From Candidatus Pacearchaeota archaeon (GTDB taxonomy: Archaea; Nanobdellota; Nanobdellia; Pacearchaeales; GW2011-AR1), in NCBI GenBank assembly GCA_017609915.1, contig JAFCDA010000001.1, positions 5,033-69,032 of the forward strand: DNA of 64,000 nucleotides. The letters run 5' to 3'. The notes beneath the pieces were generated by a model, which did not search any database, was not told the DNA's origin, and saw nothing but the letters and a program-made list of their open reading frames with translations. The translations under genes were made by a program, and so were the position numbers. Shown in pieces: positions 1-30,840 of the stretch; position 1 is the first letter of the stretch; each line of letters opens with the position of its first letter.

Positions 1-2
1 TT

Positions 3-557
3 CAGGGGACTAGAAATCTAATTAATGCATGTGAAAAAAATAAAGTTAAAAAAATAATTTTTATGAGTTCATTAGATATTAAATTTAATACACCTTATGG
101 AAAATCTAAATTAAAAGCAGAAGAGATTATTAAAAACTCTAAATTAAAATATGTATTTTTAAGGCCTACTGCAATATATGGTGAAGGATTTAAAACAGGA
201 GTAAACTCTCTTGTTAAACTTGTAAAAAAAACACCTGTTTTTCCAATACCTGGTTCTGGAAAAAATCTATATCAACCACTTTATGTTAAAGATCTGATTT
301 TATTAATAAAACAAATTCTTGATAAAAATAAATTTAATAATAAAGTTTATTTTTTAGGTGGAAGTAAGATTATGAATTTAAATCAATTAGTAAATTTGAT
401 AAGTTTTAATCTTGGAAAGAAAACAATTAAAATTCATTTGCCAATTAAATCTAAAAACTTTAAATTTAATAAGATCTGCAGTAATGATAAGATCAAAAAA
501 GATTTTGATTTTGATCCTCTTCCGATAACAAAGGGGGTTCAGAAGATATTATGCTAG
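3..557 (+). CDS. NAD-dependent epimerase/dehydratase (extended SDR) family protein, C-terminal part; 5' end outside window
   Basis: Frame of the 63..557 ORF stays open back to nt 3 (QGTRNLINACEKNKVKKIIFMSS). PYGKSK is the SDR catalytic YxxxK. Lies at the edge of the sugar island. Confidence 0.7.
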   Translation, partial: QGTRNLINACEKNKVKKIIFMSSLDIKFNTPYGKSKLKAEEIIKNSKLKYVFLRPTAIYGEGFKTGVNSLVKLVKKTPVFPIPGSGKNLYQPLYVKDLILLIKQILDKNKFNNKVYFLGGSKIMNLNQLVNLISFNLGKKTIKIHLPIKSKNFKFNKICSNDKIKKDFDFDPLPITKGVQKILC

Positions 558-2100
558 AATAATCTGATCTATCAAACCTATAAATTATCAAACTTGGTTG
601 AGAGTTTTGTGCATCTACAAAATAAATCTTAAGAGGGTTTAAATTATTTTCTTGAGGATAAGTATAAGCCCAATCTTGATGAGGTTCATATATTGAAATC
701 ATTAAAAGAGTTATATTAGGATTAGATGCTACTAATTCTTCAAATTCTTCTTTTGTATTTGGAAGCCTTAGGGCTGTTATTTCACCATAAAATTGAATAT
801 GTGGCCAACTTTTTGTTACTATTACATCTTCTGGTTGAGAATTCTCTTTTATCCATAATCCTGCTTGTTTTACTTGCAAATAAGAATCTTTCTTTAATTT
901 AATTAAATTATCTGCGTCTTGTAATTGTAAATACCCAACTGTGCCTAAAAGAACTATTAAAAACAAAACTGCTATGAATTTGCCTTTTTTCCTTATGATC
1001 TCATATAAACTTATTATAAAAGCCCCAGCCATAGCAAAAACTACTGGAAAAATATTTATGATATATCTATCTTCGTTAAAAGCAACTGAAAAACTAACCA
1101 CAAGAATTGGTATTATTATTAATAAAATTAAAAATAAATCTTTTTTTAATTTAAAATCCTTTCCTTTAATTAACATATCAACCCCTATAAATATCTTATA
1201 TAAGGAGAATAATCCTAAGATAAAAAATATTAAAAGAGGCCATGAAAGAAGGGTTGGAAACATATGGATATAAGCCTTAAGATTAGTATATCCATTTGAA
1301 AAATATTCTCCTTCTGCAGGCGCATTCCATCCTCCTGCCTGAGTTATTACAAATCCTCCAAACTCAAAATAACCCCAAATAAGATATGGTGAAAGAATCA
1401 ATGCAAAGATTAATGCAGCTATCCATAATTCCTTTTTCTTAATAAATCTTAATCTTTCTGTTATTAAAAGATAAATTAAAAGAGAAAATAAGATTGTTGC
1501 TGTTGGTAATTTAAATAAGGTTCCGATTGCAACCATTACTGCTGCCCAGTATAATGATTTAACTGAGCCATCTTTAATATACTTATAAAGAAAAAAAGCA
1601 GAAAAAGTATAAAATGCTAAGGAAGGCACTTCAACTAAAAGTCTAAAACTGTAAAAAATATTAAGGTAAAAAACAGACATTAAAAATGTAGCTACTAAAG
1701 CTGCTTTTTTGTTATACAATTCTTTTGTAAAATAATATATTCCAAAAACAGAAGCCATTGATATAATCAACAAGAATAATCTTGGTAAAAACTCATTATA
1801 AGCTAATCTTAAAAATAATGACATGATAAAAGGAAAAAAAGCAGGCCTTACTACAAGAAATTCATATTCTAAGCCTAATGCCCAGGCTCTTGCCATACTC
1901 ATATATTCTGCCCCATCCCACCATAAAGGCTGGTTTTGGGTCATTAGAAAATAATATAAACGAATTATAAGAGCAAAGGCAATGATTAATGTAAAAATCA
2001 AATTGTGTGGTTTTTTTATCCAGTTAATTATTTTATCTGTTCTTTTTTCTATTGTTTTTTCTACATCTCCTACATCTTTTAAAAGTTCTTGTGCATCCAT
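493..2100 (-). CDS. GT-C fold membrane glycosyltransferase (PMT/ArnT-like, GT39/GT83-type)
   Basis: 535 aa with many TM helices by eye. Acidic first loop WWDGAEY as in PMT/ArnT-type enzymes, plus a C-terminal soluble domain. Call rests on architecture only. Confidence 0.55.
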   Translation of the reverse strand: MDAQELLKDVGDVEKTIEKRTDKIINWIKKPHNLIFTLIIAFALIIRLYYFLMTQNQPLWWDGAEYMSMARAWALGLEYEFLVVRPAFFPFIMSLFLRLAYNEFLPRLFLLIISMASVFGIYYFTKELYNKKAALVATFLMSVFYLNIFYSFRLLVEVPSLAFYTFSAFFLYKYIKDGSVKSLYWAAVMVAIGTLFKLPTATILFSLLIYLLITERLRFIKKKELWIAALIFALILSPYLIWGYFEFGGFVITQAGGWNAPAEGEYFSNGYTNLKAYIHMFPTLLSWPLLIFFILGLFSLYKIFIGVDMLIKGKDFKLKKDLFLILLIIIPILVVSFSVAFNEDRYIINIFPVVFAMAGAFIISLYEIIRKKGKFIAVLFLIVLLGTVGYLQLQDADNLIKLKKDSYLQVKQAGLWIKENSQPEDVIVTKSWPHIQFYGEITALRLPNTKEEFEELVASNPNITLLMISIYEPHQDWAYTYPQENNLNPLKIYFVDAQNSQPSLIIYRFDRSDYSSIISSEPPLLSEEDQNQNLF

Positions 2101-2156
2101 TTTTTTATTTTATTCTTTTTCTATTATCTCTATAAACATTTAAGTTTAATTATCTA

Positions 2157-2289: not shown

Positions 2290-2601
2290 TTAACTAAGTA
2301 AACTAAAAATTCCTTTTTGAACTAAGAAAAGAGTCACTATAATCACCATAAATCTTGGCATTATCATCATTGTACTTAAAATAATAACTCCTGCTGAAAG
2401 AATATCTAAAACACTTGTTATATTTATTTTAATTGAAAAAATAAGTCCTTTTACTAATAAGAACAAACCTAAAAATAAAATAAATTTGTCAGAAATTATA
2501 TTAAAAATACCAAATATCCAAAAACATATTGCAATAAAAATATCCATTACTCCTAATATTTTAATTATCATCTTTATTAAGAGCCTCCAAAACCTGTTCA
2601 A
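2290..2601 (-). CDS. small membrane protein (3 TM), function unknown
   Basis: Hydrophobic 103-aa ORF. Start uncertain: the internal Met at 2547 would remove the 41-nt overlap with the upstream GT9 gene. Confidence 0.4.
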   Translation of the reverse strand: MNRFWRLLIKMIIKILGVMDIFIAICFWIFGIFNIISDKFILFLGLFLLVKGLIFSIKINITSVLDILSAGVIILSTMMIMPRFMVIIVTLFLVQKGIFSLLS

Positions 2602-3676
2602 TAGAAATACTTTCTTCTAACTCAGGGACATATTGATTAATAAGAAAATATTTTTCTAATAAAGGAGAAGTTAATTTTTTAAGATTATCATAATCTTCTA
2701 TTTCCCAATCAGGAGTTGAAAAAAACAAAGAAATTATTTTTTTATTTAATGCTGAAGCAAGATGTAGTGCCATTGTGTCTCCACATATAATTGTATCACA
2801 AATATTTACAACAGAAGCAAATTCTCTTAAAGAATTATTTGGGTCATTACTCATTAAAGAAATTCCTTGTTCTTTCATTTCTTTTATTAAATTTTCTTGT
2901 TTTTCAATTTCATTTGGACCTGCTAAAATAATTATCTTATTTCCTTGCAATCTTCTTATTAATTGTTTTATTTTTTCATTATTCCAAAATTTAACCCATC
3001 TATCTGAAGAACCTATATTTATCCCAATTATTTTATCATTATCAGAAAGATTATTTTGTAGTTTAAATTTTTCTGAAAACTCAATCTCTTTATTAGTTAA
3101 ATTAAAAACAGGTCTTTCTTTAGAATAATAAGATTCTAATTCACAAGCTTCTATAGTAAGTTGCTGATAAGTTTTTCTATTCTTTATCTTAACATGATTT
3201 AAAAAAGCTGTTTCTAAATAAGGTTCTGCAAATTCATTAAAATATGAGGTTGTTCCATTATCAAAAAAATAACCTAACTTTTCATTTGCTTTTACTAAAT
3301 TTGCCAATAATGTTGCAGGAGTGTCTATTTCTAGGGCAAATAAAATATCAAATTCTTCTTGTTGAATCCTTAAAATATTTTCAGGGTTATATGCAAGAAC
3401 TTTATCTACTAAAGGATTATTTTTAAGTAAATCAACAGATTCTGGATTAGTCATCCAATAAACTAAAATATCTGGCCCATATTTTTTCTTTAGAGCTGGT
3501 AAAATGCATGTTGTTCTTAAAACATCTCCCATTTCTCCAAGTTTTATAATCAAGATTTTTTTTGAGTATTCTTGTGCAAATTTGCATTCTTCACAAGACT
3601 TGTAATTTTCAGTAGATAATGTATCACAAGCATATTTTTCATTGAAAAACCTGCATTTTTTATTCCATTTTATCAT
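2561..3676 (-). CDS. glycosyltransferase family 9 (heptosyltransferase-like) with Cys-rich N-terminus
   Basis: ILIIKLGEMGDVLRTTCILPALKKKYG and C-terminal ICGDTMALHLASAL are GT9 hallmarks. There is an extra N-terminal CRFF..C..CEEC. Confidence 0.75.
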   Translation of the reverse strand: MIKWNKKCRFFNEKYACDTLSTENYKSCEECKFAQEYSKKILIIKLGEMGDVLRTTCILPALKKKYGPDILVYWMTNPESVDLLKNNPLVDKVLAYNPENILRIQQEEFDILFALEIDTPATLLANLVKANEKLGYFFDNGTTSYFNEFAEPYLETAFLNHVKIKNRKTYQQLTIEACELESYYSKERPVFNLTNKEIEFSEKFKLQNNLSDNDKIIGINIGSSDRWVKFWNNEKIKQLIRRLQGNKIIILAGPNEIEKQENLIKEMKEQGISLMSNDPNNSLREFASVVNICDTIICGDTMALHLASALNKKIISLFFSTPDWEIEDYDNLKKLTSPLLEKYFLINQYVPELEESISIEQVLEALNKDDN

Positions 3677-4080
3677 TTTAATTTTTCTAATTCTATTTTT
3701 AACTTTTCAATTGAGTCTATGATATGAACTTTTCCAACTATTATCACACTAATATCACTAATAGATTCTTTAATATCTCTATCTGTTTTTAATCCAATTA
3801 CTTTTTTTCCTATAGCTTGTGCATAACCCATTTCCCAAGCAGTTCCTGCTCCAACATAAATTCCATTTAAAACTCCAACCATAATCTCACATTTATTTAT
3901 CTCTTCTAAATCTCTTTCAGAAATTTCTTTAATTTTGTTTAAATCTCCATCATATAATCCAGCATCTCTATGAGGTAAAAATGTTTCAAAACCTAAATCT
4001 TTACAGATTTTATCTATTTGCTCTAAAAAATTTCTGTTTTTTTGTTCACACAAAGGGCCTGCAATATAAATCTTCACCAT
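3673..4080 (-). CDS. nucleoside 2-deoxyribosyltransferase-like protein
   Basis: IYIAGPL ... GAGTAWEMGYAQAIGKKVIGL signature. 4-nt overlap with the GT9 gene suggests one operon. Confidence 0.6.
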   Translation of the reverse strand: MVKIYIAGPLCEQKNRNFLEQIDKICKDLGFETFLPHRDAGLYDGDLNKIKEISERDLEEINKCEIMVGVLNGIYVGAGTAWEMGYAQAIGKKVIGLKTDRDIKESISDISVIIVGKVHIIDSIEKLKIELEKLK

Positions 4081-4133: not shown

Positions 4134-5054
4134 TTAATCCAAACTCCTAGTGCTCTTTGTTTCTTGTTTTCTCCAACCATCTACATATTTTTGTTTTTTG
4201 AACTTTAGCTCATAAAAAGCTCTTAAATAAATGTAAAATCTTGTTGAAAAAAGAGGTATTGTGAAAAAAACTTCTCGAAGGTTTTTTGGGTAAGTTAAAG
4301 CAAAAATAGCTCCTTGTTTTATTTCATTGAAAAAAGATTTGGTTCTTGGCATATCTGGAGCAATTTTATTCAAACTTTCATGTCCTTTTATGTTTCTTAT
4401 TTTTTGTATTTTAAAATCTTTCCAGTTTTGAGGATTTATAACATAAACTTCTACTTTTGGTAAATATTTTATTTTATATCCTTGCTTATGAAATAAATAA
4501 GAAATAACACCATCTTCAGAAGATTCTAAAGGGAATCCTTGTAAAACTCCGTTTCTAATCGCAAATAAATAACCTGAACATTCAAAAAACTTTTTCTGAT
4601 TTGAAAATCTTAATCTTGTTTTATGAATCCCATCAAAGGCTACATGAGAAGCATAGCCCCAAAACTTTTCTCTAGGATTTAATAAAACAGGTCTTCCAGT
4701 TATACATCCAACTTCTTTGTCTTTAAATGCTTTCATGATTTCATTTACTGTGTTTTGTGAAACATAAACATCTCCATCAGTAAGGATGATAATGTCATCT
4801 TTGTTCTGAGAATAAATTCTTTCTAAGAAAATGTTTAAAGCATAACTTTTACCTTCTCCTGGATCTAAGAAAAAGTCTATTTTGTTTTTCTTAAACTCTT
4901 TTTTATACTTTTTATTTAGAAATTCCTCTGTTTTTAGAAAAGGGTCTATTATTGTTATTTTAAATTCTTGCTTAATATTTTGATTAAGAAAACAATCAAT
5001 TGCCCTTGAAGTTGCTTTTGGTTCTCCATAAGAGGTTATAATTATGTTAATCAT
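4134..5054 (-). CDS. glycosyltransferase family 2
   Basis: GT-A pattern: IIITSYGEPK at the N-terminus and the TDGDVYV acidic motif. 306 aa. Confidence 0.65.
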   Translation of the reverse strand: MINIIITSYGEPKATSRAIDCFLNQNIKQEFKITIIDPFLKTEEFLNKKYKKEFKKNKIDFFLDPGEGKSYALNIFLERIYSQNKDDIIILTDGDVYVSQNTVNEIMKAFKDKEVGCITGRPVLLNPREKFWGYASHVAFDGIHKTRLRFSNQKKFFECSGYLFAIRNGVLQGFPLESSEDGVISYLFHKQGYKIKYLPKVEVYVINPQNWKDFKIQKIRNIKGHESLNKIAPDMPRTKSFFNEIKQGAIFALTYPKNLREVFFTIPLFSTRFYIYLRAFYELKFKKQKYVDGWRKQETKSTRSLD

Positions 5055-5344: not shown

Positions 5345-6037
5345 ATGGCTAATGCAATCATATTATGTTCTGGTGGATTAGATAGTGTTGTTTTAGCACA
5401 TTATTTGAAGAAGGTTCAAAAAATTGAAAAAATTAGGTTGGTTTTCTTAGATTATAATCAAAAAGCTTTAGAAGAGGAAAAATTTTGTGTTGAGAAATTA
5501 GCTAAAGATTTGGATGCTGATTTAAAAATTATTAATGTTAAATGGCTTGGAGAAATTAGTACTTCTTTGATTAATAAAGATGCTGATAAAAATGAAATTG
5601 ATTCTGAAGAATTAATTTCATGGTATGTTCCTTGTAGGAATTCCTTGTTTTTATTAATAGGATTATCATTAGCAGAATCTGAATTTATTTCTAAAAATGA
5701 AAAATATGATGTTTATCTTGGAATAAAATATGAAGGAGAACTTCAATTTAAAGATACTACTCCTGAATTTCTTGAACAAATGAATAAAATAACCAATTTT
5801 TCAACTCAAACAGGAGATTATAAGTTTATTGCTCCTTTTTTAAACAAAGATAAAGAAAAGGTTATTGAATTAGGTTTGGAGTTAGGAGTTGATTTAAAGA
5901 ACACTTATAGTTGTTATATTGGAAAAGGTTTTGAAAATGAGGTTCCTGTTCATTGTGGAGTTTGTAGTGCTTGTAAATCAAGAAAAAAAGCTTTTAAGTT
6001 TTCAAATAATAATGATGTTAGTGTTTATGGGTGTTAA
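5345..6037 (+). CDS. queC: 7-cyano-7-deazaguanine synthase QueC
   Basis: PP-loop ILCSGGLDS and C-terminal zinc site CGVCSACKSRKKAF. 230 aa. Confidence 0.85.
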   Translation: MANAIILCSGGLDSVVLAHYLKKVQKIEKIRLVFLDYNQKALEEEKFCVEKLAKDLDADLKIINVKWLGEISTSLINKDADKNEIDSEELISWYVPCRNSLFLLIGLSLAESEFISKNEKYDVYLGIKYEGELQFKDTTPEFLEQMNKITNFSTQTGDYKFIAPFLNKDKEKVIELGLELGVDLKNTYSCYIGKGFENEVPVHCGVCSACKSRKKAFKFSNNNDVSVYGC

Positions 6038-6492: not shown

Positions 6493-8037
6493 TTAAACCC
6501 TATACCTAACTTTATCATACCAGACTTTAAAATCTAAAGGAAGGCTTCTATAAGTTGGTTTTAATATTCTTTCTCTTATTAAATCATAAATACTCACGAA
6601 TTTTAAAATAAATAATGTATTAGAGGGGTTTGTTAGATTTTTTTTAATTCTTTCTGGTTTAAGAAGATGGTTAATCAAAGAATTTGATATTATTCCAAAT
6701 CTTTTTTCTGTTACAACTCCCCTCATTAAATTTAAAATTAAAACTAAATACATGTTTTTTCTTTTTAATAAAATATGCGCTCCTCTGTCCCAATAATTAA
6801 GAGTAACTGCTGAATCTTTTGGAGTTTTTATTATGCCTTCATTTACAGCTCTTTCATGAAGTTTAGATCCATGAAAAAAAACTAAGTTATTAACAGATAA
6901 AAAATAAGGTTTTGGAAGCTTTTGCAATAATCTTATCATATTTATTATATCTTCTGGTTTTTCATAAGGATTGCAAGTTATGACATCATACATAACAGCT
7001 AATTTGTCCTTGTACTTGTTTAAGATTTTTGCTGCATTAATTACTTCTTTATTTGTTTGATTCCTGTGATAAACTTCTTTATTAACTCTTTCTTCTCCTT
7101 GAATTCCCATAATTATATCTGTACACCCTGCATTTACAAGAAGTTTTATTTTTTCATCTGAAACAGTATGGGGATCTGTAAGACATTTAAACCTAAGATT
7201 AACTTTTTCTTTGTATTTTTTTGTGAATTCTCTTATTTGCTCAATAGGTCTTAAAGAAAAAGTGTCATCTCTTATATCAAAATAACTTAAACTTGGAAAT
7301 TTTTCTTTTAATTTTAAAATCCCTTTAATTATATAATCCACACTATGCCATCTTACTATTTTTTTTCTTTTTCCCTTGTAAAGTTCATTTAATAAACTAT
7401 TACTACAATAATCACACCCATAAGGGCATCCTCTTCCTGTTAAGAAAAATATTGCTCCATCTAAATCTTGTTCTCTAAATCTTCTTAATCTATGATTGTC
7501 AAGAATATAATGTGTTTTTGTATCATAATCTGGAAGAGGAATAGAATCTAAATTATCTATTAAAAGTCTTACAGGGTTTTTAATTATCTTTTCCGTTTCT
7601 TTGTTTTTAATCCAAAGATTTTTTATTTTTTTAATTGATTTATTTTTTTCTATTGCATTAACTAAATCAAGAATTGTTTCTTCTCCTTCTCCAACACATA
7701 CAATATTACAATATTTAATACATTCTTTTGGTGAAATTGTTGCATGAATTCCTCCCCAAACAATTGGGATTTTTACACATGTTTTTTCTAAATATTTTAT
7801 TATCTGAATAGCTCTTGGTGCAGTTGAAACAAAAGAACTAATTCCAATTAATTCTGAATCTTTGCAAATTTGATAAAGTTGTCTTAATTCCTGTCTTTTG
7901 TAAAACTTAGAATAATCTTCACTTAGGTTCATAAAAACTAATTTAACATCATGTCCTGCTTTTTTTAAAACAGCAGAAATTGTCCTTATTCCTTGATCTG
8001 AAGGATATGTTGCTGCAGAAATTAAAGTTATTTTCAT
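6493..8037 (-). CDS. B12-binding-domain radical SAM protein (1 of 3)
   Basis: N-terminal Rossmann/B12-like domain (MKITLISAATYP, CVGEGEE). Radical SAM cluster motif CPYGCDYC. 514 aa. Confidence 0.8.
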   Translation of the reverse strand: MKITLISAATYPSDQGIRTISAVLKKAGHDVKLVFMNLSEDYSKFYKRQELRQLYQICKDSELIGISSFVSTAPRAIQIIKYLEKTCVKIPIVWGGIHATISPKECIKYCNIVCVGEGEETILDLVNAIEKNKSIKKIKNLWIKNKETEKIIKNPVRLLIDNLDSIPLPDYDTKTHYILDNHRLRRFREQDLDGAIFFLTGRGCPYGCDYCSNSLLNELYKGKRKKIVRWHSVDYIIKGILKLKEKFPSLSYFDIRDDTFSLRPIEQIREFTKKYKEKVNLRFKCLTDPHTVSDEKIKLLVNAGCTDIIMGIQGEERVNKEVYHRNQTNKEVINAAKILNKYKDKLAVMYDVITCNPYEKPEDIINMIRLLQKLPKPYFLSVNNLVFFHGSKLHERAVNEGIIKTPKDSAVTLNYWDRGAHILLKRKNMYLVLILNLMRGVVTEKRFGIISNSLINHLLKPERIKKNLTNPSNTLFILKFVSIYDLIRERILKPTYRSLPLDFKVWYDKVRYRV

Positions 8038-9307: not shown

Positions 9308-9413
9308 GATTTTTTTGAGAAGTTGATTGTTTATAAAGTTATATTGGATATACTTAATAAATTGTTTTTTTGTTCTAGTAACATTTATATAGTTTTCCAA
9401 AGGTATTTTACTT

Positions 9414-10829: not shown

Positions 10830-10830
10830 A

Positions 10831-20001: not shown

Positions 20002-20973
20002 ATGAAAAAAAAGGAAATTCCTGTTTCATTGGTTATGCTTACTTTTGAGATAGATAAAACTGAACCAGCAATTAGAAATGCTCTTGAACAAGATTATCCT
20101 AATAAAGAAATAATTGTTGTAAATGACAATCCAAAATTAAAAATTCCTGATTCTATACTTAAATTAGAAAAACAACGTAAAATTAAAATTGTAAATAATG
20201 TAAAAAATCTTGGTATGGCAGGAAGTTTAAATGCAGGAATCAAGGCTTCAAAAACTAATACAATATTATTTACTTGTCATGATTATTTTTTTGAAAGTAA
20301 TCAATGGATTAGACATATTGTAGAAAAACTTTATTCTGATAAAAAACTAGGAACTATTGGTTCTGTTGTTAGATTGCCTATAGAAGAATGGAAAAATTAT
20401 AGTTTCTTAAACAAACTTTTTACATTTAGGCATATGCTTAAACCATCACGTAATTTACATAGTTGTTATAAAAGAGAGGTATTTAATAAATTAGGATTAT
20501 TTGATTCAAAAAATTTTAAGCGTGGTGGAGAAGATGGAGATTTTTATTCTAAGGTTATAAAAGCCGGGTATAAAACAGGGTGTATTGAAGATAGCCTAAT
20601 CCATAAACATTATAATAAAGATGATAGTTTATTAAAAATACTTAGAAAAGAATATGAGTATGGAAGATCTCATGGAGCACGTAAAAGAAAAGATGGTCTT
20701 TTTTCAAGACTGGGTTTATTTGATTTTGAAATTCGTATTTTACTTATACTAGGATTTATAATGGGTTTATTTATTCATCCTATAATAAGTTTTCTTTATT
20801 TTTTGCCTTTCTTTTTTGTAGCTTTATTTAAGTGCATTAAAGCATATCCTCAAACAAAATGGATTCCTGGATTAATTCTTTCTCCTTTTGCAGGAGTACT
20901 TATTTTATTAATCCAAACTATTGGGGCAACAAAAGAATATTTAGTCCTTCCTAAAACTAAAAGCAAAAAATAA
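20002..20973 (+). CDS. glycosyltransferase family 2 with C-terminal TM helices
   Basis: VSLVMLTFE..., IIVVNDNP, GEDGDFY. Hydrophobic C-terminus. Confidence 0.65.
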   Translation: MKKKEIPVSLVMLTFEIDKTEPAIRNALEQDYPNKEIIVVNDNPKLKIPDSILKLEKQRKIKIVNNVKNLGMAGSLNAGIKASKTNTILFTCHDYFFESNQWIRHIVEKLYSDKKLGTIGSVVRLPIEEWKNYSFLNKLFTFRHMLKPSRNLHSCYKREVFNKLGLFDSKNFKRGGEDGDFYSKVIKAGYKTGCIEDSLIHKHYNKDDSLLKILRKEYEYGRSHGARKRKDGLFSRLGLFDFEIRILLILGFIMGLFIHPIISFLYFLPFFFVALFKCIKAYPQTKWIPGLILSPFAGVLILLIQTIGATKEYLVLPKTKSKK

Positions 20974-22483: not shown

Positions 22484-23134
22484 ATGAGTCCAAATTTAAA
22501 AAATCTTTCAGATGAAGAAAAAGAAATTAAGATGATTGAGTTTGTAAAAGAGATTGTTGAATTATGGGAAGCTGCAAAAATACCTTATCCTATTCATTTT
22601 AGTGGGGGAAATGAAAAAGAATTAATTAAAATCTTTTCTGAAATTAAAGAAGGAGATTATGTTTTTTCTACGCATAGGGGGCATTATCATTATTTATTAA
22701 AAGGTGGAGATTTTGAAAAGTTAAAAGAATTTATTTTAAGAGGAGATAGTATGCATATTTTTGATAAAGATTTAAAATTTCTTACATCTGCTATTGTTGC
22801 TGGAACTCCCTCTATTGCTGCAGGAGTTGCTTATGCTTTAAAAAAGAAAAATAGTGAAAATAAAGTATGGTGTTTTATTGGAGATGGGGCAGAAGATGAA
22901 GGGCATTTTTATGAAGCAGTTAGGTATGTTGATGGATGGGATTTGCCATGCACATTTATTATAGAAGATAATGATCGGTCTGTTGAAACTCCAAAAAGTG
23001 AAAGATATGGAAAATCTCAAATTCAGTGGCCATCATGTGTTAGAAGATATATGTACAAGCCAAAATATCCTCATGTAGCAACTGAAAATTGGGTTGATTT
23101 TTCAGGAATGAAAGCTGGAGGTCCTTCTTTTTAA
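22484..23134 (+). CDS. TPP-dependent dehydrogenase E1 alpha-like protein (short form)
   Basis: TPP motif IGDGAEDEGHFYEAVRYVDGWDLPCTFIIEDND (GDG...N). 216 aa versus ~320 aa for typical E1 alpha. Confidence 0.6.
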   Translation: MSPNLKNLSDEEKEIKMIEFVKEIVELWEAAKIPYPIHFSGGNEKELIKIFSEIKEGDYVFSTHRGHYHYLLKGGDFEKLKEFILRGDSMHIFDKDLKFLTSAIVAGTPSIAAGVAYALKKKNSENKVWCFIGDGAEDEGHFYEAVRYVDGWDLPCTFIIEDNDRSVETPKSERYGKSQIQWPSCVRRYMYKPKYPHVATENWVDFSGMKAGGPSF

Positions 23135-24774
23135 TGAAATATAAAGAATTAATTAGTGAAGAAATGAAAAAATTAGCAAAAAATGATAAAACTGTCTTTA
23201 TAGGATATAATATTAAAAGAGGTTCAAAAGCTTATGGGACCTTAACAGATGTTCAAGATAAATGTATTGAAATGCCCCTTGCAGAAAATTTAATGACAAG
23301 TTTTGCTATTGGCATGTCTTTAGAAGGCTATAAACCAGTAGTTTTCTTTGAGAGACAAGATTTTATTTTAAATGCCTTAGACTCTATTGTTAATCATTTA
23401 GATAAAATTAAAGAAATGTCTAAAGGAGAATTTGAAACTCCTATAATAATCAGAGCCCCTGTAGGCGGCAAAAAACCTTTAGATCCTGGGATGCAGCATA
23501 CTCAAGATTTTAGTGAGGTATTGAAAAAAATTATTAAATTTCCAGTTTATGAATTAAAAACTGAAGAAGATTTTGCTAATTATTCTAAAATTATTCAAAA
23601 TATAAAAGAACCAACCCTTTTTATAGAGTATAAGGACCTTTATGGAAAAGAAATTGAGCAAAAAGAAAAAATAATTCTTGATAGTCATAAATTAATCTGG
23701 CATACAGAAAGAGTTAATGCATGGTTAAGAGGAGAAAGAATTGCTCCTATAACAATAGATTGCGCATTAACCAGGAGATGTAATTATAGATGTACTTATT
23801 GTTATGGACAATTACAAGCAAATGATGAAAAAAAGATGACTTTAGAGGTAATTCAAAGATTTTTAAAAGATGCTTCTGAAATAGGGGTAAAAGCTGTAAG
23901 TTTTGTAAGTGATGGAGAAAGTTCATGCTCTCCTCATCTTTATGATTCAATAATTTATGGGAAAAAACAAGGACTAGATATGGCTCTTGGAACAAATGGG
24001 TCTTTGCTTAAAAAAGAAGGGCTTAAAGAAGCAATAGAGTGCTTAACCTATCTTAGATTTAATATTTCTGCTGGAGAAAAAGAACGATATAAAGAAATAC
24101 ATGGATGTTCTGATTTAGATTATGATAAAACAATTGAAAATATTAAAGAATGTGTAAAAATAAAAAAAGAAAATAATTTAGATGTTACAATTGGTTTACA
24201 AATGGTTCTCATGTCTGAATTTAAAGACCAAATAATTCCTTTAACAAAATTAGGAAAAGAACTAGGAGTTGATTATTTAGTTATTAAACATTGTAGTGAT
24301 GATGAAGAAGGTAGTTTAGGAATAGATTATGATAAATATTTTGATAAAGATTTAATTGAAAAAATAAAAGAAGCTGAATCTTATTCAGATGAAAATTACT
24401 TAGTTAAAGCAAAATGGTCAAAAATCTTAAGTGGGGGAAAAAGAAATTATTCACGATGTTTTGGACCTCCTTTTATCTTACAGATGTCTGGTTCTGGATT
24501 AGTTGCTCCTTGCGGAATGTTTTTTAATGATAAATATGAAAAATATCATATTGGAAATATAGCTGAAAAATCTTTTAAAGAGATTTGGGAAAGCGATAGA
24601 TATTGGGAAGTTATGGATTTAATTGCTTCTGAAGATTTTGATGCAAAAACAATGTGTGGAACTTTATGCTTGCAGCATAAAGTAAATGAATATCTCTGGG
24701 ATTTAAAAGATAAAGGGGTAACTAATATAGATGTACCAGAAGGAGAAGCTCCAATGCATCTTAATTTTATTTGA
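23134..24774 (+). CDS. fusion protein: E1 beta-like (transketolase pyrimidine-binding) N-domain + radical SAM domain
   Basis: aa 1-~175 carry MPLAENLMTSFAIGMSLEGYKPVVFFERQDFILNALDSIVNH (E1-beta/Transket_pyr-like). aa ~185-546 are radical SAM with C216NYRC220TYC223. Confidence 0.65.
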   Translation: MKYKELISEEMKKLAKNDKTVFIGYNIKRGSKAYGTLTDVQDKCIEMPLAENLMTSFAIGMSLEGYKPVVFFERQDFILNALDSIVNHLDKIKEMSKGEFETPIIIRAPVGGKKPLDPGMQHTQDFSEVLKKIIKFPVYELKTEEDFANYSKIIQNIKEPTLFIEYKDLYGKEIEQKEKIILDSHKLIWHTERVNAWLRGERIAPITIDCALTRRCNYRCTYCYGQLQANDEKKMTLEVIQRFLKDASEIGVKAVSFVSDGESSCSPHLYDSIIYGKKQGLDMALGTNGSLLKKEGLKEAIECLTYLRFNISAGEKERYKEIHGCSDLDYDKTIENIKECVKIKKENNLDVTIGLQMVLMSEFKDQIIPLTKLGKELGVDYLVIKHCSDDEEGSLGIDYDKYFDKDLIEKIKEAESYSDENYLVKAKWSKILSGGKRNYSRCFGPPFILQMSGSGLVAPCGMFFNDKYEKYHIGNIAEKSFKEIWESDRYWEVMDLIASEDFDAKTMCGTLCLQHKVNEYLWDLKDKGVTNIDVPEGEAPMHLNFI

Positions 24775-24938: not shown

Positions 24939-25997
24939 ATGGCAGTAGATAGTAAAATTGACGGGCATAAATTAATCCTGCATCCAAAAAGGGTGGCTGA
25001 ATGGAAAGAAAAAGGAGATTGTTATCCAATATATATTGAGATAGGTCCTACAAATATATGTAATCATAGATGTATTTTTTGTGCTTTAGATTATCTTGGA
25101 CATGAAGGATTTAATATAGACACAGAACTTATGATTAATACCTTAAAAGAAATCGGGGAAAAGGGTGTTAAATCTATAATGTTTGCCGGAGAAGGAGAAC
25201 CTCTTGCGCATAAAGATATTGGATTATTTGTTCAAACAGCAAAACAATCTGGAATAGATGTTTCTATTACAACAAATGGGGTATTATTTAATAAAGAAAA
25301 AGCAGAACAATTTCTTCATCATTTATCTTGGATAAGGTTTAGTATTGATGCTGGAACTTCTGAAACTTATAATAAAGTTCATAGAGGGGGAGAAAATGAT
25401 TTTAACAAAGTTATAGAAAACATAAAAAATGCTGTTGAAATTAAAAAAGCAAAAAATCTAAACACTGTGATTGGAATTCAGTTTTTAATGATTCCTGATA
25501 ATCTAAATGATGTTCTTAAACTTGCTCAAATAGCAAAAGATATTGGGGCAGATAATTTGCAAATAAAACCTTATTCTCAGCATCCAAAAAGTGAAAATAG
25601 TTTAGTACTATATTATGAAGATTATGCGCATTTAGAAAAAGAACTTGAAAAGTTTAATTCACCTGATTTTAAAATCTTCTTTAGAAAACAGACAATGCAA
25701 AGAGTTGAACAAGGAATCAATTATTCTGGATGTCATGGGCTTCCATTTTTTGCTCTAATAGATGCAAAAGGAAACATAATTCCATGCAATCTTTTTTATG
25801 ATATTCCAGAATTTACATATGGAAATTTACATGAAAACAGTTTTTCAGAAATTTGGAAAAGTGAAAAAAGACAACAAGTTTTACAAAGAATAAGAGAAAA
25901 AGGAATTGAAGATTGCAGACATGCATGTAGATTAGATGTTATTAACAGATATTTACAAAGATTAAAAAATCCTCAATCACATGATAATTTTGTGTGA
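24939..25997 (+). CDS. radical SAM protein, paralog of the C-terminal domain of 23134..24774
   Basis: HKLILHPKRVAEWKEK...CNHRCIFC parallels HKLIWHTERVNAWLRG...CNYRCTYC. Collinear similarity runs to the C-terminus (HDNFV vs HLNFI). Confidence 0.75.
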   Translation: MAVDSKIDGHKLILHPKRVAEWKEKGDCYPIYIEIGPTNICNHRCIFCALDYLGHEGFNIDTELMINTLKEIGEKGVKSIMFAGEGEPLAHKDIGLFVQTAKQSGIDVSITTNGVLFNKEKAEQFLHHLSWIRFSIDAGTSETYNKVHRGGENDFNKVIENIKNAVEIKKAKNLNTVIGIQFLMIPDNLNDVLKLAQIAKDIGADNLQIKPYSQHPKSENSLVLYYEDYAHLEKELEKFNSPDFKIFFRKQTMQRVEQGINYSGCHGLPFFALIDAKGNIIPCNLFYDIPEFTYGNLHENSFSEIWKSEKRQQVLQRIREKGIEDCRHACRLDVINRYLQRLKNPQSHDNFV

Positions 25998-26067: not shown

Positions 26068-27015
26068 ATGATGAATAAAGTATTAATTATAAAAACTGGG
26101 TATTCTGAGGTTTTAGATAGAAGAAATAATTCAAGAGTAGTAAGTTTTGGAGATGTATTAAGAACAACTCCATTATTACATCTTTATAAAGACAATCATA
26201 TAACTTGGGTCACAGATGAAAAAGCGATTCCATTACTTAAACACAACCATTTAATTAATCGTCTACTCGTTTTAGATTTTATTTCAATATCTCAATTACA
26301 AACAGAAGAATTTGATGTTGTGATAAATCTTGAAAAAATTCCTGGAATATGTGCACTTGCAGACAAAATAAGAGCAAGAAGAAATAGATATGGATTTACT
26401 TTTAATAGTCAAACTGGAGAAGCAGAAGCATATGATAAATCCCATGATATCCTTAGCCTGAGTACAAATCAAGAATTAAAAAGAAGTAATAAAAAAACTG
26501 CCCAAGAACTTTTATTTGAAATAGTTGGGGAAGAATGGAAAGGGGAAGAATATGTTCTTGGATATCAACCTAAAACAGAGGAAAAATACACTGTTGGTTT
26601 AAACAGCATTGTAGGACTTAAATGGCCAACTAAAGCCTGGCCAGCAGAAAATTGGGATGAATTAACTGAAATATTAAAAAATGGAGGGATAGTAGTAAGC
26701 AGACAAGACCAACAACCTAAAGAAACATTAACAGACCTCTTTAAGTATATGGATTGGATAAATTCTTGTAAATTAATTGTTAGCAATGATAGTCTTGGAA
26801 TGCATTTGGGAATAGCATTAAAGAAAAAAATTTTAGGATTATTTGGAGCAACATCTCCTTATGAAGTGCATTTTTATGGTGATGGAAAACCAATTATGCC
26901 AAATCCTATCCCAAGTTGTTTACCTTGTTTTAGAGGTTCTTGTGAAAGAAGAAAAAATTGTATAAATGAGATTACTCCTGAAAAAGTATATCAAGAGATT
27001 AGGAAGCTTATATAA
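26068..27015 (+). CDS. glycosyltransferase family 9-like protein (second copy) with Cys-rich C-terminus
   Basis: VLIIKTGYSEVL...FGDVLRTTPLL, SNDSLGMHLGIAL. C-terminal CLPCFRGSCERRKNC. Confidence 0.65.
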   Translation: MMNKVLIIKTGYSEVLDRRNNSRVVSFGDVLRTTPLLHLYKDNHITWVTDEKAIPLLKHNHLINRLLVLDFISISQLQTEEFDVVINLEKIPGICALADKIRARRNRYGFTFNSQTGEAEAYDKSHDILSLSTNQELKRSNKKTAQELLFEIVGEEWKGEEYVLGYQPKTEEKYTVGLNSIVGLKWPTKAWPAENWDELTEILKNGGIVVSRQDQQPKETLTDLFKYMDWINSCKLIVSNDSLGMHLGIALKKKILGLFGATSPYEVHFYGDGKPIMPNPIPSCLPCFRGSCERRKNCINEITPEKVYQEIRKLI

Positions 27016-27066: not shown

Positions 27067-28032
27067 ATGAATAAAAAAGATTTAGAAACATATGGTTCTG
27101 GTTTATTAGATTTTCATACTCATTCAACTTTCTCTGATGGGGGAGATACCCCAACACAACTTGTAGAAAGAGCTAAAAAACAGGGGGTTACTGCAATGGC
27201 TTTAACAGACCATCATGGTCATAAAGGATTACCTGAATTTATAGCTGCATGTAAGCAATATGATATATTTCCAATACCTTTTGGAGTTGAAATTGCTGCA
27301 GAACTTCCTGAAAAAGTTTTAACACCACAAGATATGTCTTCTCCTGATTTAATTATTCTTGGAAAAAATCCAAATGTAAAACCTATGAAAGGATATCAAG
27401 AAATATATTTTAATGATTTGGAAAAAAGGCATTTACCTGAAATATTAGCTGGATTAAGAAAGGTTGGTTTTGAATTACCTGTTGTAAATCTAAAAGAACA
27501 ATGTGCTTCTTTTCATGCTCCTCCAGATATACTTCATGATTTTGTTCATTATAAAAAAAATATGCAAGTTTTAAAAAATTATGTTAAAACAAAGGATTCA
27601 AATGTTAGTGATGCAGACATTGAAAAAAAACCAATAGCATTTGCTAATAGATGGTTATATGCTGTAGGTATGCCTGCTTATACAGCAAGATTTAAAGGTT
27701 TTAGCCTTGATAGTGCACTTCAATTAGTTGAAGAGATGAACTGTAAACTATTTATTGCACACCCTGGAGGAGATTATGGGTTTTTAACAGATGCTATGTT
27801 AAATTATTTTACTGAGAAGAAAATCCATGGAATTGAGATAAGAAGTTATCTTAACAGCCCTGAACAAAATGCTAAATTTGATAAATTAGCTAAAGAACAC
27901 AATCTAATAAGATCTGGAGGTTCTGATTGTCATGGTGCCAAGGGGCCTTTTAGAATGGGAATATATGATCGTCCACAAAATCAACTTCCTAAAGATGTTT
28001 TAGAAGAGCTTATGGACTGGTTGCCTTCTTAA
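27067..28032 (+). CDS. PHP-domain metal-dependent phosphoesterase
   Basis: DFHTHSTFSDGGDTP, ALTDHH, GGSDCHG. Confidence 0.75.
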   Translation: MNKKDLETYGSGLLDFHTHSTFSDGGDTPTQLVERAKKQGVTAMALTDHHGHKGLPEFIAACKQYDIFPIPFGVEIAAELPEKVLTPQDMSSPDLIILGKNPNVKPMKGYQEIYFNDLEKRHLPEILAGLRKVGFELPVVNLKEQCASFHAPPDILHDFVHYKKNMQVLKNYVKTKDSNVSDADIEKKPIAFANRWLYAVGMPAYTARFKGFSLDSALQLVEEMNCKLFIAHPGGDYGFLTDAMLNYFTEKKIHGIEIRSYLNSPEQNAKFDKLAKEHNLIRSGGSDCHGAKGPFRMGIYDRPQNQLPKDVLEELMDWLPS

Positions 28033-28224: not shown

Positions 28225-29136
28225 ATGGACCCAATACAAATCCCTCAAGGTTACAATTATATATCTGCATTTTTAACAATGAGATGCAATCTTAATTGTA
28301 GTTTTTGCTTAAATTCAATTGACAAAAGCAGAGAATTTAATAGGACAAAATTTAAAGAGCTTTCTGGAGAGCAATGGGTTAAAGCATTAAATAGGATTGA
28401 ATCACGTCCAGAAGTTCCAGTAACCTTTTCAGGAGGAGAGCCTTTTTTACATCCAGATTTTCTTTATATCCTTAAGAATCTTAAAAAAGATTTAAACATA
28501 GATATTTTAACTAATTTATCTTTTGAAGTAGCTGTTGAAAAATTTTTAAAAGAAATAGACCCAGAAAGAATAAAGAGAAATGTTCCTTATGCTTGTATTC
28601 GTGTTTCTTATCATCCAGAACAAATGGGAAATGGTGCAGAACTTATTGAAACAGTTAAAAAACTAAAAGATGCTGGATTTAGTATTGGTGTATGGAGTGT
28701 TTTATATCCTTCTTTTGAAAATCTCTCTGCAATAAATCAAATGCAATTTAGATGTATAGATGCAGGAATTGATTTTAGATTAAAAGAATATACTGGAACC
28801 TATAAGGGAGACTTATATGGAGATTATTCTAAATATTCTAACTCAGTTTTATCAAATAAATTAAAAAAATGCTTATGTAAGGGCTCTGAATTATTAATAG
28901 CTCCAAATGGAAATATTTACAAATGTCACAGTGATTTATTTAGTGAAGAATTTCCTATAGGAAATATTCTTGACCCTAATTTCCAAATTAAAAACGAATT
29001 TAGAAAATGTGAGAAATATGGTCAGTGCCATCCATGTGATGTAAAACTTAAGACAAATTATAAACAAGAATTAGGGAATACCTCTGTTGAAATAAAAGAA
29101 ATAGAAGATAATTCTCAACCGAAAGTTATAGTTTAA
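28225..29136 (+). CDS. radical SAM protein (small, C-terminal Cys-rich)
   Basis: CNLNCSFC cluster motif, FSGGEPFLHPDF, C-terminal CEKYGQCHPCD. Confidence 0.75.
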   Translation: MDPIQIPQGYNYISAFLTMRCNLNCSFCLNSIDKSREFNRTKFKELSGEQWVKALNRIESRPEVPVTFSGGEPFLHPDFLYILKNLKKDLNIDILTNLSFEVAVEKFLKEIDPERIKRNVPYACIRVSYHPEQMGNGAELIETVKKLKDAGFSIGVWSVLYPSFENLSAINQMQFRCIDAGIDFRLKEYTGTYKGDLYGDYSKYSNSVLSNKLKKCLCKGSELLIAPNGNIYKCHSDLFSEEFPIGNILDPNFQIKNEFRKCEKYGQCHPCDVKLKTNYKQELGNTSVEIKEIEDNSQPKVIV

Positions 29137-29223
29137 ATTTTTTGGTATTTATAAAAATATGATGAGATAAAGAAGAGGGATTAAGTTATTCAGATAATAT
29201 CTCTTGATTGAGCTTATAAAATA

Positions 29224-30840
29224 TTAAAATGTTTTTTTTATAGATTTTTTAACTAATTTTAAATCCTTAAATAATTTTTTTATAACTGATTTTATCACCA
29301 TTAAATCCTCTTTATCAAGAGAATGTGAAATAATTATTAAAGACAAGTAAAGTAAAATAAACAAAGAGGTTAAAATTATAATTGAAAAAACATTAATTGT
29401 AACTTTTTCTATTAAATAAAATAAAACTCCTGTTGGGATTATTGAAACTAAGATTATAGTAAACATCTTTCTTTTTAAAGGTATAAATGAAAGATGTTTT
29501 TTTGTTTGTATAATCAAAAGGGTATTTAAAAAGATTATAGATAAAACAGTTGCAAGAGAAGCTCCGATTAAACCATTTGAATTATCTAAAGAAAACAAAA
29601 CAGGTATTGGAACTAATATTGAATTTAATATTAAATTAACAATTGCAGATATAGATATATTAAACAAGATTAACTTAGATTTACCTAACATTGAAATAAG
29701 ATTTGTTGAAATCATAAATAATGCAGAAATAAATGTTCCAATTAGCAAAAATTTAAGGGCAATTTGTGCAATAACATATTGACTTCCAAAAAGGATATTT
29801 AATGATGCTCCTGAAAAAAAGAATATTAAAATAAAAATTGGAAGAATTGCCATAAATATCCATTTATTTACTTGTTTACTAAGCTGTTTGATTAAAGCAT
29901 TATTTTTTGCAGAATATTGTCTTGTTATAAGTGGAAAAAATAACTGCATAAATAATTGTGGGACAATCATTATAAGCATTGCAATTGGCACAGCTGCATT
30001 ATAAAACCCAACTTCTACTGCAGATTTATAATAACCTAAAGAAATAGTATCAATCCAATGAAAAATAATAGATATAGCTGCAAAAAATAATAATGGCCAG
30101 GAATATTGAAAAAACTCTTTACTAATCTTTGAATAATCTTTTTTCTCATAAGAACCAAAGATTTTATTTATTTTATTTTTACAAACTAAATAAGCAGCAA
30201 ATAATGTAAGAATTGAACCAGATATGTAAGACCAAACAACAGCATTTCCTCCTGAATTAAAACCTATGAAAATAAGAATTATAAGCACACCTACACGGAC
30301 TAAATTTTGAAAAATATTAAAAATAAAAGAATACCATCCAATCTTTTCAAACCCTCTAAGCACTGTGAGAAATATACTTGCAAGCATTACAGCAAGAATT
30401 GAAAAACTCATTATTTTTAGAAAAATAGAAAGGCTTGGATTATGAAATATTTGTATTGAAATAAAATCTGATAAACCAATTAAAACTATTGAAGCAATTA
30501 TCCCAGAGATTAAATAAAATCTCAGTGTTTTTCTAAATAAATACCTCATCTCATTAATCTTTTTTCTCTCTCTTAATAATGGGACAAATCTTAATAATCC
30601 ATCTACAAAACCAAAAGAAGCAATTGTGATAAAAAGAGGGATTACAGATAAAACAAGAGAAAATAATCCATAAATTTCTGGGCCATAATAACGAGCAATA
30701 ATTATCCTATAAGCATACATTAAAACTTTTGATAAAAAAAGTCCAATAAAAACAATAAAAGAAGATTTCATAATTAGTTTAAGAGATTTATTAAGCTGAT
30801 TTTCTCTTGTAATATGTTCCTGATTTTTCAAATGTTCCAT
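29224..30840 (-). CDS. oligosaccharide/polysaccharide flippase (MOP superfamily, Wzx-like)
   Basis: 538 aa with ~14 TM helices by eye. N-terminal pattern typical of polysaccharide biosynthesis (Wzx) proteins. Closes the glycan island. Confidence 0.7.
   Translation of the reverse strand: MEHLKNQEHITRENQLNKSLKLIMKSSFIVFIGLFLSKVLMYAYRIIIARYYGPEIYGLFSLVLSVIPLFITIASFGFVDGLLRFVPLLRERKKINEMRYLFRKTLRFYLISGIIASIVLIGLSDFISIQIFHNPSLSIFLKIMSFSILAVMLASIFLTVLRGFEKIGWYSFIFNIFQNLVRVGVLIILIFIGFNSGGNAVVWSYISGSILTLFAAYLVCKNKINKIFGSYEKKDYSKISKEFFQYSWPLLFFAAISIIFHWIDTISLGYYKSAVEVGFYNAAVPIAMLIMIVPQLFMQLFFPLITRQYSAKNNALIKQLSKQVNKWIFMAILPIFILIFFFSGASLNILFGSQYVIAQIALKFLLIGTFISALFMISTNLISMLGKSKLILFNISISAIVNLILNSILVPIPVLFSLDNSNGLIGASLATVLSIIFLNTLLIIQTKKHLSFIPLKRKMFTIILVSIIPTGVLFYLIEKVTINVFSIIILTSLFILLYLSLIIISHSLDKEDLMVIKSVIKKLFKDLKLVKKSIKKTF

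Follow-up and report, generated by a model that had tools for sequence, protein, structure and literature searches.

Why does an archaeon of DPANN, a lineage in which genome reduction is typical, gather six radical SAM (rSAM) genes in one part of its chromosome, and what might their products make? The question is raised by a 64-kb stretch of contig JAFCDA010000001.1 (Candidatus Pacearchaeota archaeon), hereafter the window, whose positions serve as coordinates throughout and whose open reading frames (ORFs) were scanned with Pfam and NCBIfam profiles. The ORF listing and the Pfam scans place about 27 genes in 1-31.3 kb. The original prediction described this part as a 31-kb glycan island with six rSAM genes, and this description was borne out: the genes, starting at 6493 (CPYGCDYC), 13443 (CAFQCTFC), 21052 (CPYNCCFC), 23134 (CNYRCTYC), 24939 (CNHRCIFC) and 28225 (CNLNCSFC), all carry an intact CxxxCxxC motif and score 49.7-98.5 bits with PF04055 against a cut-off of 29.5, and no Radical_SAM match was obtained among the scanned ORFs of 31-64 kb (30 of the 37 ORFs with at least 100 amino acids). 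Anaerobes devote about 1-2% of their genes to rSAM enzymes, so that a set of some 27 genes should hold less than one; six in the island and none in the scanned ORFs beyond it are therefore a real concentration and not chance.

We are highly confident that the island is a chromosomal cell-surface glycan locus holding a conserved cassette. As to what it makes, the best overall explanation, which on balance we consider probable, is a surface-glycan island in which a cassette of rSAM and thiamine pyrophosphate (TPP) enzymes makes a branched sugar anaerobically. None of the island rSAM proteins reaches any NCBIfam cut-off, whether for housekeeping, lipid, sugar or RiPP (ribosomally synthesized and post-translationally modified peptide) enzymes. 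The housekeeping models (MiaB/RimO, MoaA, QueE, HemN/HemW, NrdG, anSME and LipS) all stay far below theirs, as in MoaA with 77 against 325 bits, RimO with 55 against 357 and anSME with 34 against 349. In addition, the cassette genes travel with GT9, GT2 and Wzx genes in more than 40 related loci. Both observations favour the tailoring of a surface glycan, as had been suggested from the gene content, and most plausibly the rSAM enzymes tailor its sugars.

A cassette joining thiamine and radical SAM enzymes

The cassette, which forms the core of the island at 21.0-29.1 kb, consists of B12rSAM_C, the two TPP subunits (alpha, and beta fused to rSAM367), rSAM355, the glycosyltransferase (GT) GT9b and rSAM303. 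These genes, preceded by the two other rSAM genes of the island, are as follows:

6493-8037, minus strand: B12rSAM_A, 514 aa (PF02310 58.8 bits, PF04055 59.3 bits)
13443-15155, minus strand: B12rSAM_B, 570 aa (PF04055 69.7 bits, PF02310 56.4 bits)
21052-22473, plus strand: B12rSAM_C, 473 aa, cassette member (PF04055 98.5 bits, PF02310 75.7 bits)
22484-23134, plus strand: short TPP-binding alpha subunit, 216 aa, with the pyrophosphate-binding domain of E1/transketolase enzymes (E1_dh/DXP_synthase_N; PF00676 71.4 bits)
23134-24774, plus strand: TPP beta subunit (Transket_pyr, E1-beta-like; aa 1-175) fused to rSAM367 (PF02779, PF04055, PF13186)
24939-25997, plus strand: rSAM355, radical SAM/twitch protein, paralogue of the rSAM367 part (PF04055 84.8 bits, PF13186 38.8 bits)
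26068-27015, plus strand: GT9b, cassette glycosyltransferase (PF01075 60.0 bits)
28225-29136, plus strand: rSAM303, small radical SAM/SPASM protein, cassette member (PF04055 49.7 bits)

The first three proteins contain an N-terminal B12-binding domain, as had been noticed from the sequence, and all pass the PF02310 cut-off of 32.1 bits; the other three rSAM proteins have SPASM/twitch-type C-termini.

The original prediction overlooked the TPP alpha gene and the TPP part of the gene at 23134, and the TPP/rSAM fusion is the island's most informative feature. In the alpha subunit the TPP/Mg motif is intact (GDGAEDEG...IIEDND, that is, GDG and ND spaced by 26 residues), and the protein is 73% identical to its counterpart in the related archaeal locus L001. 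Its stop codon overlaps the next ATG by one base (TAATG), and the gene beginning there encodes a beta subunit, with the catalytic glutamate in the context PLAENLM, followed by the rSAM domain with its own CNYRCTYC motif. Because the same TPP-beta::rSAM architecture occurs in 11 other database proteins from independent assemblies, one of them a triple fusion of alpha, beta and rSAM, the fusion is not a frameshift artefact. Polysaccharide clusters with radical SAM tailoring are already known; the fusion within the cassette is the unusual element. Both window subunits match E1 alpha/beta models. The cut-offs of the pyruvate dehydrogenase E1 equivalogs are missed (alpha 90 against 394 bits, beta 66 against 321), and no lipoyl, E2 or E3 domain was found in the scanned window ORFs.

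The rSAM367 part belongs to a family of 367-aa proteins with four invariant C-terminal cysteines, 62-81% identical to homologues in archaea and a dozen bacterial phyla. Carriers include Omnitrophota, Planctomycetota (Brocadia, Pirellulales), Nitrospirota, Desulfobacterota, Fibrobacter, Elusimicrobia, Patescibacteria and DPANN archaea, and more than 5,700 proteins match at E <= 1e-5, a count that may take in more distant rSAM relatives. The other members are similarly shared: in comparisons with archaeal and bacterial counterparts, respectively, rSAM355, also with four C-terminal cysteines, shows 60% and about 44% identity, GT9b 62-65% and 45-50%, and rSAM303 52-68% and 36-54%. The genes of 43 related loci were assigned by BLASTP comparison with annotated reference genes, and in the 24 loci with adequate flanks we counted how often other genes occur together with rSAM367:

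TPP alpha 88%; TPP beta 83%; rSAM355 88%
254-aa GT2 79%; two small unknown proteins 58%
GT9b 50%; rSAM303 50%; B12-domain rSAM 50%
short-chain dehydrogenase/reductase (SDR) 46%; HldE-like 38%; GmhA-like 29%; DegT 29%

B12rSAM_C can be counted as part of the cassette, since locus L050 has an ortholog of it, with 70% identity, flanked by the TPP beta gene and rSAM367. A full-text literature search found no description of the cassette.

A comparison of the island in relatives, which had been proposed together with the original prediction, shows how stable this arrangement is. Locus L019, on a 375-kb contig of an uncultured archaeon, is collinear with the window from the B12-type rSAM genes through secDF, in the order B12rSAM_B, B12rSAM_C, GT9b, rSAM355, TPP alpha, TPP beta, rSAM367, rSAM303, Wzx, YdjM-like, secD, secF, and in P0012, a 190-kb archaeal contig, the island likewise lies beside secDF. 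Sister DPANN islands hold 6-9 rSAM genes (nine in 21.4 kb in L050, eight in 21.6 kb in L001, six in L019 and at least six in L051), which makes rSAM saturation a trait of the lineage rather than a peculiarity of the window. On neighbour-joining trees the archaeal cassette copies group together, which suggests that the cassette has been resident in DPANN for some time. Two loci binned as bacterial, L048 (Desulfobacteraceae) and L012 (Saccharibacteria), have cassette genes that branch within the archaeal clade of the rSAM367 tree or beside it; L048 does so on the rSAM355 tree as well and encodes a short TPP alpha of the archaeal type (63% identical). This placement reflects either inter-domain transfer or mis-binned DPANN contigs.

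Two chemistries and their possible product

What could a TPP enzyme and a set of rSAM enzymes do together? An AlphaFold (AF2) model of rSAM367 has a mean confidence score (pLDDT) of 89, and its top fold matches are DesII (by Foldseek) and BlsE, enzymes that act on nucleoside- or nucleotide-linked pyranoses. The original prediction had pointed to DesI/DesII-type pairs, and on the side of the fold the idea stands, in that the predicted structure resembles those of the TDP-desosamine and blasticidin S pathways. On the side of the families it does not: the cut-offs of the DesII, DesI and BlsE models (TIGR04426, TIGR04427, TIGR04466) are widely missed, rSAM355 scoring 47 against 450 bits with the first and the DegT gene of the island 147 against 650 with the second. 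Unlike DesII and BlsE, moreover, rSAM367 has four invariant C-terminal cysteines and a TPP partner.

On the thiamine side, three TPP architectures recur beside the cassette rSAM genes: a short split transketolase-like pair of about 276 and 165 aa (the bacterial alpha reaches 216 bits with transketolase), a long E1-like split pair of about 326 and 347 aa, and, in the Pacearchaeota locus L051, a single-chain enzyme resembling acetolactate synthase (ALS) and YerE. Only two mechanisms have been described for two-carbon branching of sugars, the pyruvate-dehydrogenase-like pair AviB1/AviB2 with the non-haem iron enzyme AviO2, and the ALS-like flavoenzyme YerE (PMC4425429, PMC4753412). The paulomycin proteins Pau11 and Pau12 measure 325 and 345 aa (PMC4425429), sizes much like those of the long cassette variants. 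Like AviB1/AviB2 of avilamycin and Pau11/Pau12, the cassette has a two-subunit E1-type TPP enzyme inside a sugar-tailoring cluster, although the window subunits are truncated (216 aa, and a Pyr domain alone of about 175 aa) with the beta subunit fused to rSAM, whereas the actinomycete systems serve aerobic antibiotic synthesis with an oxygen-dependent AviO2 partner, not the surface glycans of anaerobes or archaea. YerE, an enzyme of the CDP-yersiniose pathway, in turn attaches a two-carbon branch derived from TPP to a keto-sugar nucleotide for an O-antigen, and in the sister island L051 an ALS-type TPP enzyme lies beside rSAM/SPASM, DegT and epimerase genes, but the window has a split E1-type enzyme instead. 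To our knowledge, no rSAM partner of YerE has been described.

With both known TPP architectures placed beside sugar-type rSAM genes in anaerobes, and with the beta subunit fused to rSAM in this lineage, a TPP-plus-radical route to a branched or chain-extended sugar is the best reading of the cassette. Its most likely role, as we infer it, is to supply the surface glycan with a deoxy or amino sugar that bears a two-carbon branch and is made anaerobically. An NDP-sugar would first be prepared, here by the 4,6-dehydratase-like SDR and DegT and in some bacteria through HldE/GmhA-like heptose genes. A DesII/BlsE-like rSAM enzyme would then take a hydrogen from the sugar, giving a keto or deoxy intermediate without oxygen; rSAM may act as an anaerobic stand-in for AviO2. 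The two-subunit TPP enzyme would supply a two-carbon carbanion, in the manner of AviB1/AviB2, Pau11/Pau12 and the single-chain YerE in the synthesis of branched octoses, and with its beta subunit fused to rSAM the two chemistries would be linked physically. The remaining rSAM enzymes and the three with a B12 domain could deoxygenate, rearrange or methylate the product further. GT9, GT2, GT4 and GT6 enzymes would finally build the glycan on a lipid carrier, Wzx would flip it, and the GT-C enzyme might complete or transfer it outside. The parts of this scheme differ in strength. Two-carbon branching as the specific chemistry, argued from analogy, is plausible and falls short of probable. That alpha, TPP-beta::rSAM and rSAM355 form a new enzyme system, coupling a thiamine-bound two-carbon carbanion to radical SAM chemistry independently of oxygen, is possible and somewhat more doubtful.

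Several points weigh against this reading. All the enzymes score below the cut-offs of characterised families, so that every substrate and reaction has to be inferred. The comparison with the AviB and Pau enzymes covers architecture, subunit sizes and cluster context, and identity between rSAM367 and DesII or BlsE is about 15%. No nucleotidyltransferase or heptose-pathway gene is present in the window, and the glycan structure is known for no carrier of the cassette. Also, a short transketolase-like TPP variant could build a ketose phosphate, extending the chain rather than branching it.

This last possibility leads to the alternative that survives best, though we think it unlikely: that the TPP enzyme acts as a transketolase forming a C7-C9 ketose phosphate, which is isomerised, nucleotide-activated, tailored by rSAM enzymes as a heptose or octose and transferred by GT9. 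Its appeal comes from the 216-bit transketolase match of the short bacterial alpha subunits, from GT9 being the heptosyltransferase family, and from the HldE-, GmhA- and GSU2086-like genes that flank the cassette in 29-38% of loci. The window subunits, however, match E1 alpha/beta rather than transketolase, loci of the window type (with GT9b and rSAM303) mostly lack HldE/GmhA genes, and the HldE-like protein has its domains reversed and scores 152 against a cut-off of 521 bits. In this protein (L007 2978-4507, with orthologues in L006, L009 and L011) the nucleotidyltransferase comes first and the kinase second, the reverse of E. coli HldE; the bacterial gene is accompanied by a second, stand-alone nucleotidyltransferase of 160 aa and by a GSU2086-family protein. 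In Geobacter, GSU2086 lies between hldE and gmhA (PMC5585712). The lipopolysaccharide (LPS) inner-core heptose system of GmhA, HldE and the GT9 enzymes WaaC/WaaF thus resembles the island in its GT9s and the bacterial cassettes in their HldE-, GmhA- and GSU2086-like genes, but the matches are all below equivalog cut-offs. HldE-like genes do occur in the archaeal P0012 contig, as in 38% of the related loci, whereas the 64-kb window holds no GmhA, HldE or GmhB gene, and for the window the heptose link is indirect. Archaea are not known to have LPS.

Could the SPASM/twitch enzymes instead mature a peptide or protein, be it a RiPP or one of the surface proteins, for instance the beta-helix and Laminin_G giants nearby? 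SkfB, SuiB, CteB and anSME are close fold matches, the maturases SkfB and SuiB coming just behind DesII and BlsE in the comparison with rSAM367, and giant proteins of secreted type are neighbours of the cassette in Brocadia, L006 and L051 as well as in the window (35226-37982). Yet the cassette has no conserved companion gene for a precursor peptide, a protease or a RiPP transporter; its invariant partners are TPP subunits and glycosyltransferases, and the two top fold matches are sugar-acting enzymes, so that we regard this as very unlikely.

The same question of substrate arises for the three B12-domain enzymes. The family of B12rSAM_C counts more than 2,900 members, all unnamed, from DPANN, Omnitrophota and Nitrospirae; the top match of its model (pLDDT 93) is AprD4, with a TM score of 0.74-0.78, and TsrM, MgmA/QCMT, CysS, OxsB and TokK are close behind. 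In sequence, too, AprD4 is the top match of B12rSAM_C and B12rSAM_B, followed by the cobalamin-dependent TsrM and MgmA; for B12rSAM_B the best matches in the PDB are AprD4 and then MgmA/QCMT. B12rSAM_B is 51% identical to a gene of the archaeal locus L019, and B12rSAM_A is 49% identical to the L001 gene 3063-4607 and has no sequence match in the PDB. Two particulars of B12rSAM_B are a perfect internal duplication, KNKKPFFTKP twice (residues ~168-187), between the B12 domain and the rSAM core, and a C-terminal zinc-ribbon-like tail, CxxC...CxxC (residues ~501-530), missing from the other two enzymes. AprD4, the rSAM 1,2-diol dehydratase of apramycin with a B12-like domain, acts on a sugar, which agrees with a glycan role. 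The likeness is limited by an identity of 21%, by 101 bits with NF033070 against a cut-off of 500, by cobalamin enzymes close in the fold ranking, and by B12rSAM_A, which matches no solved structure. AprD4 binds no cobalamin despite clustering with the B12-type rSAM enzymes (2026 review, PMC12931638). With this protein as the nearest characterised relative of two of the three enzymes, and with TsrM and MgmA close behind, these enzymes may or may not depend on cobalamin, and the claim that three cobalamin-dependent enzymes imply scavenging is weakened. A 'B12-binding domain' should consequently not be read as a cobalamin requirement when auxotrophy is judged in reduced genomes.

That these B12-domain enzymes, and perhaps others, modify membrane lipids (as GrsA, Tes, HpnJ or ladderane-type enzymes) and not glycans had been offered as an alternative from the start. 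Among the best NCBIfam matches are indeed HpnJ, with 194, 148 and 69 bits, and a lipid B12-rSAM of ladderane type, with 82-124 bits, but these scores are far under the cut-offs of 577 and 360. Tes-type enzymes are ruled out on NCBIfam scores, their model (NF045702) being matched by rSAM303 alone with 31 against 450 bits. The island has no lipid-synthesis gene, members of the family are found in bacteria as well as in archaea, two groups with different lipids, and HpnJ itself acts on a sugar moiety; a lipid role is therefore most improbable. Just as improbable is a diffusible small glycoside, an aminoglycoside-like secondary metabolite in place of a surface polymer, for although AprD4-, DesII- and BlsE-like folds, DegT, a 4,6-dehydratase-like SDR and FkbM are typical of antibiotic sugar pathways, the island has a Wzx flippase, a GT-C enzyme and eight glycosyltransferases, keeps a fixed site beside secDF in several archaeal genomes, and shows no aglycone or cyclitol synthase or exporter.

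The other island genes and their surroundings

Around the six rSAM genes, the glycosyltransferases of the island were counted as eight genes, accompanied by Wzx, SDR and DegT. Pfam confirms nearly every item of the gene list originally given (GT-C, two GT9, two GT2, GT4, GT6, Wzx, DegT, FkbM, the alkaline-phosphatase-like and PAPS (phosphoadenosine phosphosulfate)-reductase-fold proteins and PHP); of the two to three extended SDRs announced, two were found. A QueC-like gene and a deoxyribosyltransferase-like gene had escaped notice. Outside the cassette the genes are:

63-557, plus strand: extended SDR, C-terminal part (epimerase/dehydratase; Pfam Epimerase/RmlD_sub_bind, profile positions 137-239 only)
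493-2100, minus strand: GT-C glycosyltransferase, PMT_2/ArnT-like (PF13231 80.5 bits)
2561-3676, minus strand: GT9a glycosyltransferase (PF01075 59.8 bits; nearest solved structures 3tov, a GT9, and WaaF)
3673-4080, minus strand: nucleoside 2-deoxyribosyltransferase-like protein (PF05014 67.6 bits; no NCBIfam match)
4134-5054, minus strand: GT2a glycosyltransferase (PF13641 and PF00535)
5345-6037, plus strand: QueC-like PP-loop enzyme (PF06508 147.6 bits; TIGR00364 121 bits, cut-off 150)
8147-9517, minus strand: GT4 glycosyltransferase (PF00534 125.8 bits; 75% identical to the GT4 of L051)
9414-10829, plus strand: phosphodiesterase/pyrophosphatase of the alkaline phosphatase superfamily (Phosphodiest, PF01663 119.3 bits)
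10831-11592, minus strand: PAPS-reductase-fold protein with PP-loop (PF01507 148 bits; NF002537 143 bits, cut-off 154)
11666-12874, minus strand: sulfatase-fold enzyme (PF00884 172.9 bits)
15814-16686, plus strand: GT6 glycosyltransferase (PF03414 57.6 bits; NF041524 160 bits, cut-off 250)
16750-17823, plus strand: NDP-sugar 4,6-dehydratase-like extended SDR (PF01370 165 bits; stop overlaps the DegT start)
17820-18911, plus strand: DegT-family NDP-keto-sugar aminotransferase (PF01041 403 bits)
19024-19932, plus strand: FkbM-family methyltransferase (PF05050; TIGR01444 113.5 bits, above its cut-off of 37.7)
20002-20973, plus strand: GT2b glycosyltransferase with C-terminal membrane region (PF00535 63.5 bits)
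27067-28032, plus strand: PHP-family phosphoesterase (PF02811 53.4 bits; not in the cassette elsewhere)
29224-30840, minus strand: Wzx-type polysaccharide flippase (PF01943 89.6 bits; 42-44% identical to the L001, L019 and L050 flippases)
30905-31333, minus strand: small YdjM-like protein (weak PF04307 match)

Since the first SDR gene is truncated at the edge of the window, the island probably extends further upstream. The second SDR has dTDP-glucose 4,6-dehydratase as its best NCBIfam match (137 against 365 bits) and the DegT protein has PseC (268 against 423); judged by their families, the two would jointly yield an NDP-4-amino-4,6-dideoxyhexose. The GT-C enzyme would use a lipid-linked sugar donor on the outer side of the membrane, the GT4 gene probably starts downstream of the listed TTG, and the QueC-like gene may be a housekeeping gene of the archaeosine pathway embedded in the island. 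The PHP protein matches 3',5'-bisphosphate nucleotidase weakly (79 against 400 bits). Both GT9 proteins clear the PF01075 cut-off of 22 bits, and PDB searches with them return only 3tov and WaaF. A role of GT9b as a TibC-like (TibC/BAHT) protein heptosyltransferase for the neighbouring beta-helix protein is unsupported, as these searches gave no TibC match.

A sulfated glycan had also been envisaged. The sulfatase-like enzyme indeed has the sulfatase fold, but S-T-A-P-A-L-S-S occupies the nucleophile position, the formylglycine motif C/S-x-P-x-R occurs nowhere in the protein, and all NCBIfam sulfatase cut-offs are missed (arylsulfatase 128 against 481 bits); from these residues it is probably a hydrolase or transferase of phospho-esters with a threonine nucleophile. 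As the motif is missing and no sulfotransferase was found in the island, sulfation is unsupported. A pairing of this enzyme with anSME falls for the same lack of motif and for the anSME score given above. The PAPS-reductase-fold protein, flanked by two enzymes of the alkaline phosphatase superfamily, has an SGGTDS PP-loop and an iron-sulfur-type CC...CxxC motif and is missing the C-terminal ECGLH of CysH, so it may not be a true CysH. A phosphonate pathway, suggested by weak PhpK and Sden_1168 P-methyltransferase matches, was discarded, with no phosphoenolpyruvate mutase or other phosphonate gene in the window.

L019, the P0012 contig and the window all have the YdjM-like gene between Wzx and secD; its product is about 30% identical to a 173-aa Brocadia protein (L009 gene 11094-11615) and accompanies the cassette in some bacterial loci. 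Directly after secDF, at 34540-38736, come DUF4956, a 918-aa CotH/beta-helix protein and a VTC-domain protein. In Brocadia (L009 12877-17104, L010 4930-9253) the cassette is followed by DUF4956 and a giant Laminin_G/beta-helix protein, and Laminin_G/FG-GAP giants stand beside the island in L006 (12614-15790) and L051 (996-7408). Such large surface proteins could be glycosylation targets.

The host is a DPANN archaeon, Pacearchaeota/Nanoarchaeota-like. The archaeal origin assumed from the letters is confirmed by an S13-S4-S11-RpoD-L18e-L13-S9 operon and DUF655 in the window, the nearest named relatives of S4 come from Pacearchaeota, Nanoarchaeota and Nanoarchaeia, and the closest homologues of the island genes are also from Pacearchaeota/Nanoarchaeota. 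A chimera or mis-assembly, which would have undone the island, is contradicted by uniform composition, the window being AT-rich throughout (GC content 24-31%) with tetranucleotide correlations of 0.98-0.996 between each 8-kb segment and the rest and zero Ns, and by the gene order from the B12-type rSAM genes to secDF, which is kept in L019 and the P0012 contig. The window has four tRNA genes and a free-standing 5S rRNA gene (39781-39895), alone beside tRNA-Leu (39626-39709); no 16S or 23S rRNA gene was detected across its 64 kb. Outside the island it encodes a Cas4-like PD-(D/E)XK nuclease (51374-52210), rubrerythrin (57805-58326), which is typical of anaerobes and acts in oxygen stress, and a XerA-like tyrosine recombinase (58332-59216). 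A scan for promoters and terminators of bacterial type was uninformative, its counts being equal to those of shuffled sequences.

What the island may mean for DPANN surfaces

DPANN archaea live attached to other cells, and their surface chemistry is almost uncharted. rSAM-dense glycan islands extend across the lineage, and the cassette is common to Omnitrophota, Planctomycetota, Nitrospirota, Desulfobacterota and Patescibacteria. If alpha, TPP-beta::rSAM and rSAM355 do form a new enzyme system, there would be an oxygen-independent route to C-branched or chain-extended sugars, strongly conserved at about 70% identity and spread over DPANN and a dozen bacterial phyla of uncultivated anaerobes. 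The cassette, of about four proteins, offers a defined target for enzymology, which could reveal an anaerobic counterpart of the two known branching routes. For the archaea themselves, it would mean that the surface through which DPANN cells meet their hosts is decorated at a cost of up to nine rSAM enzymes per island.

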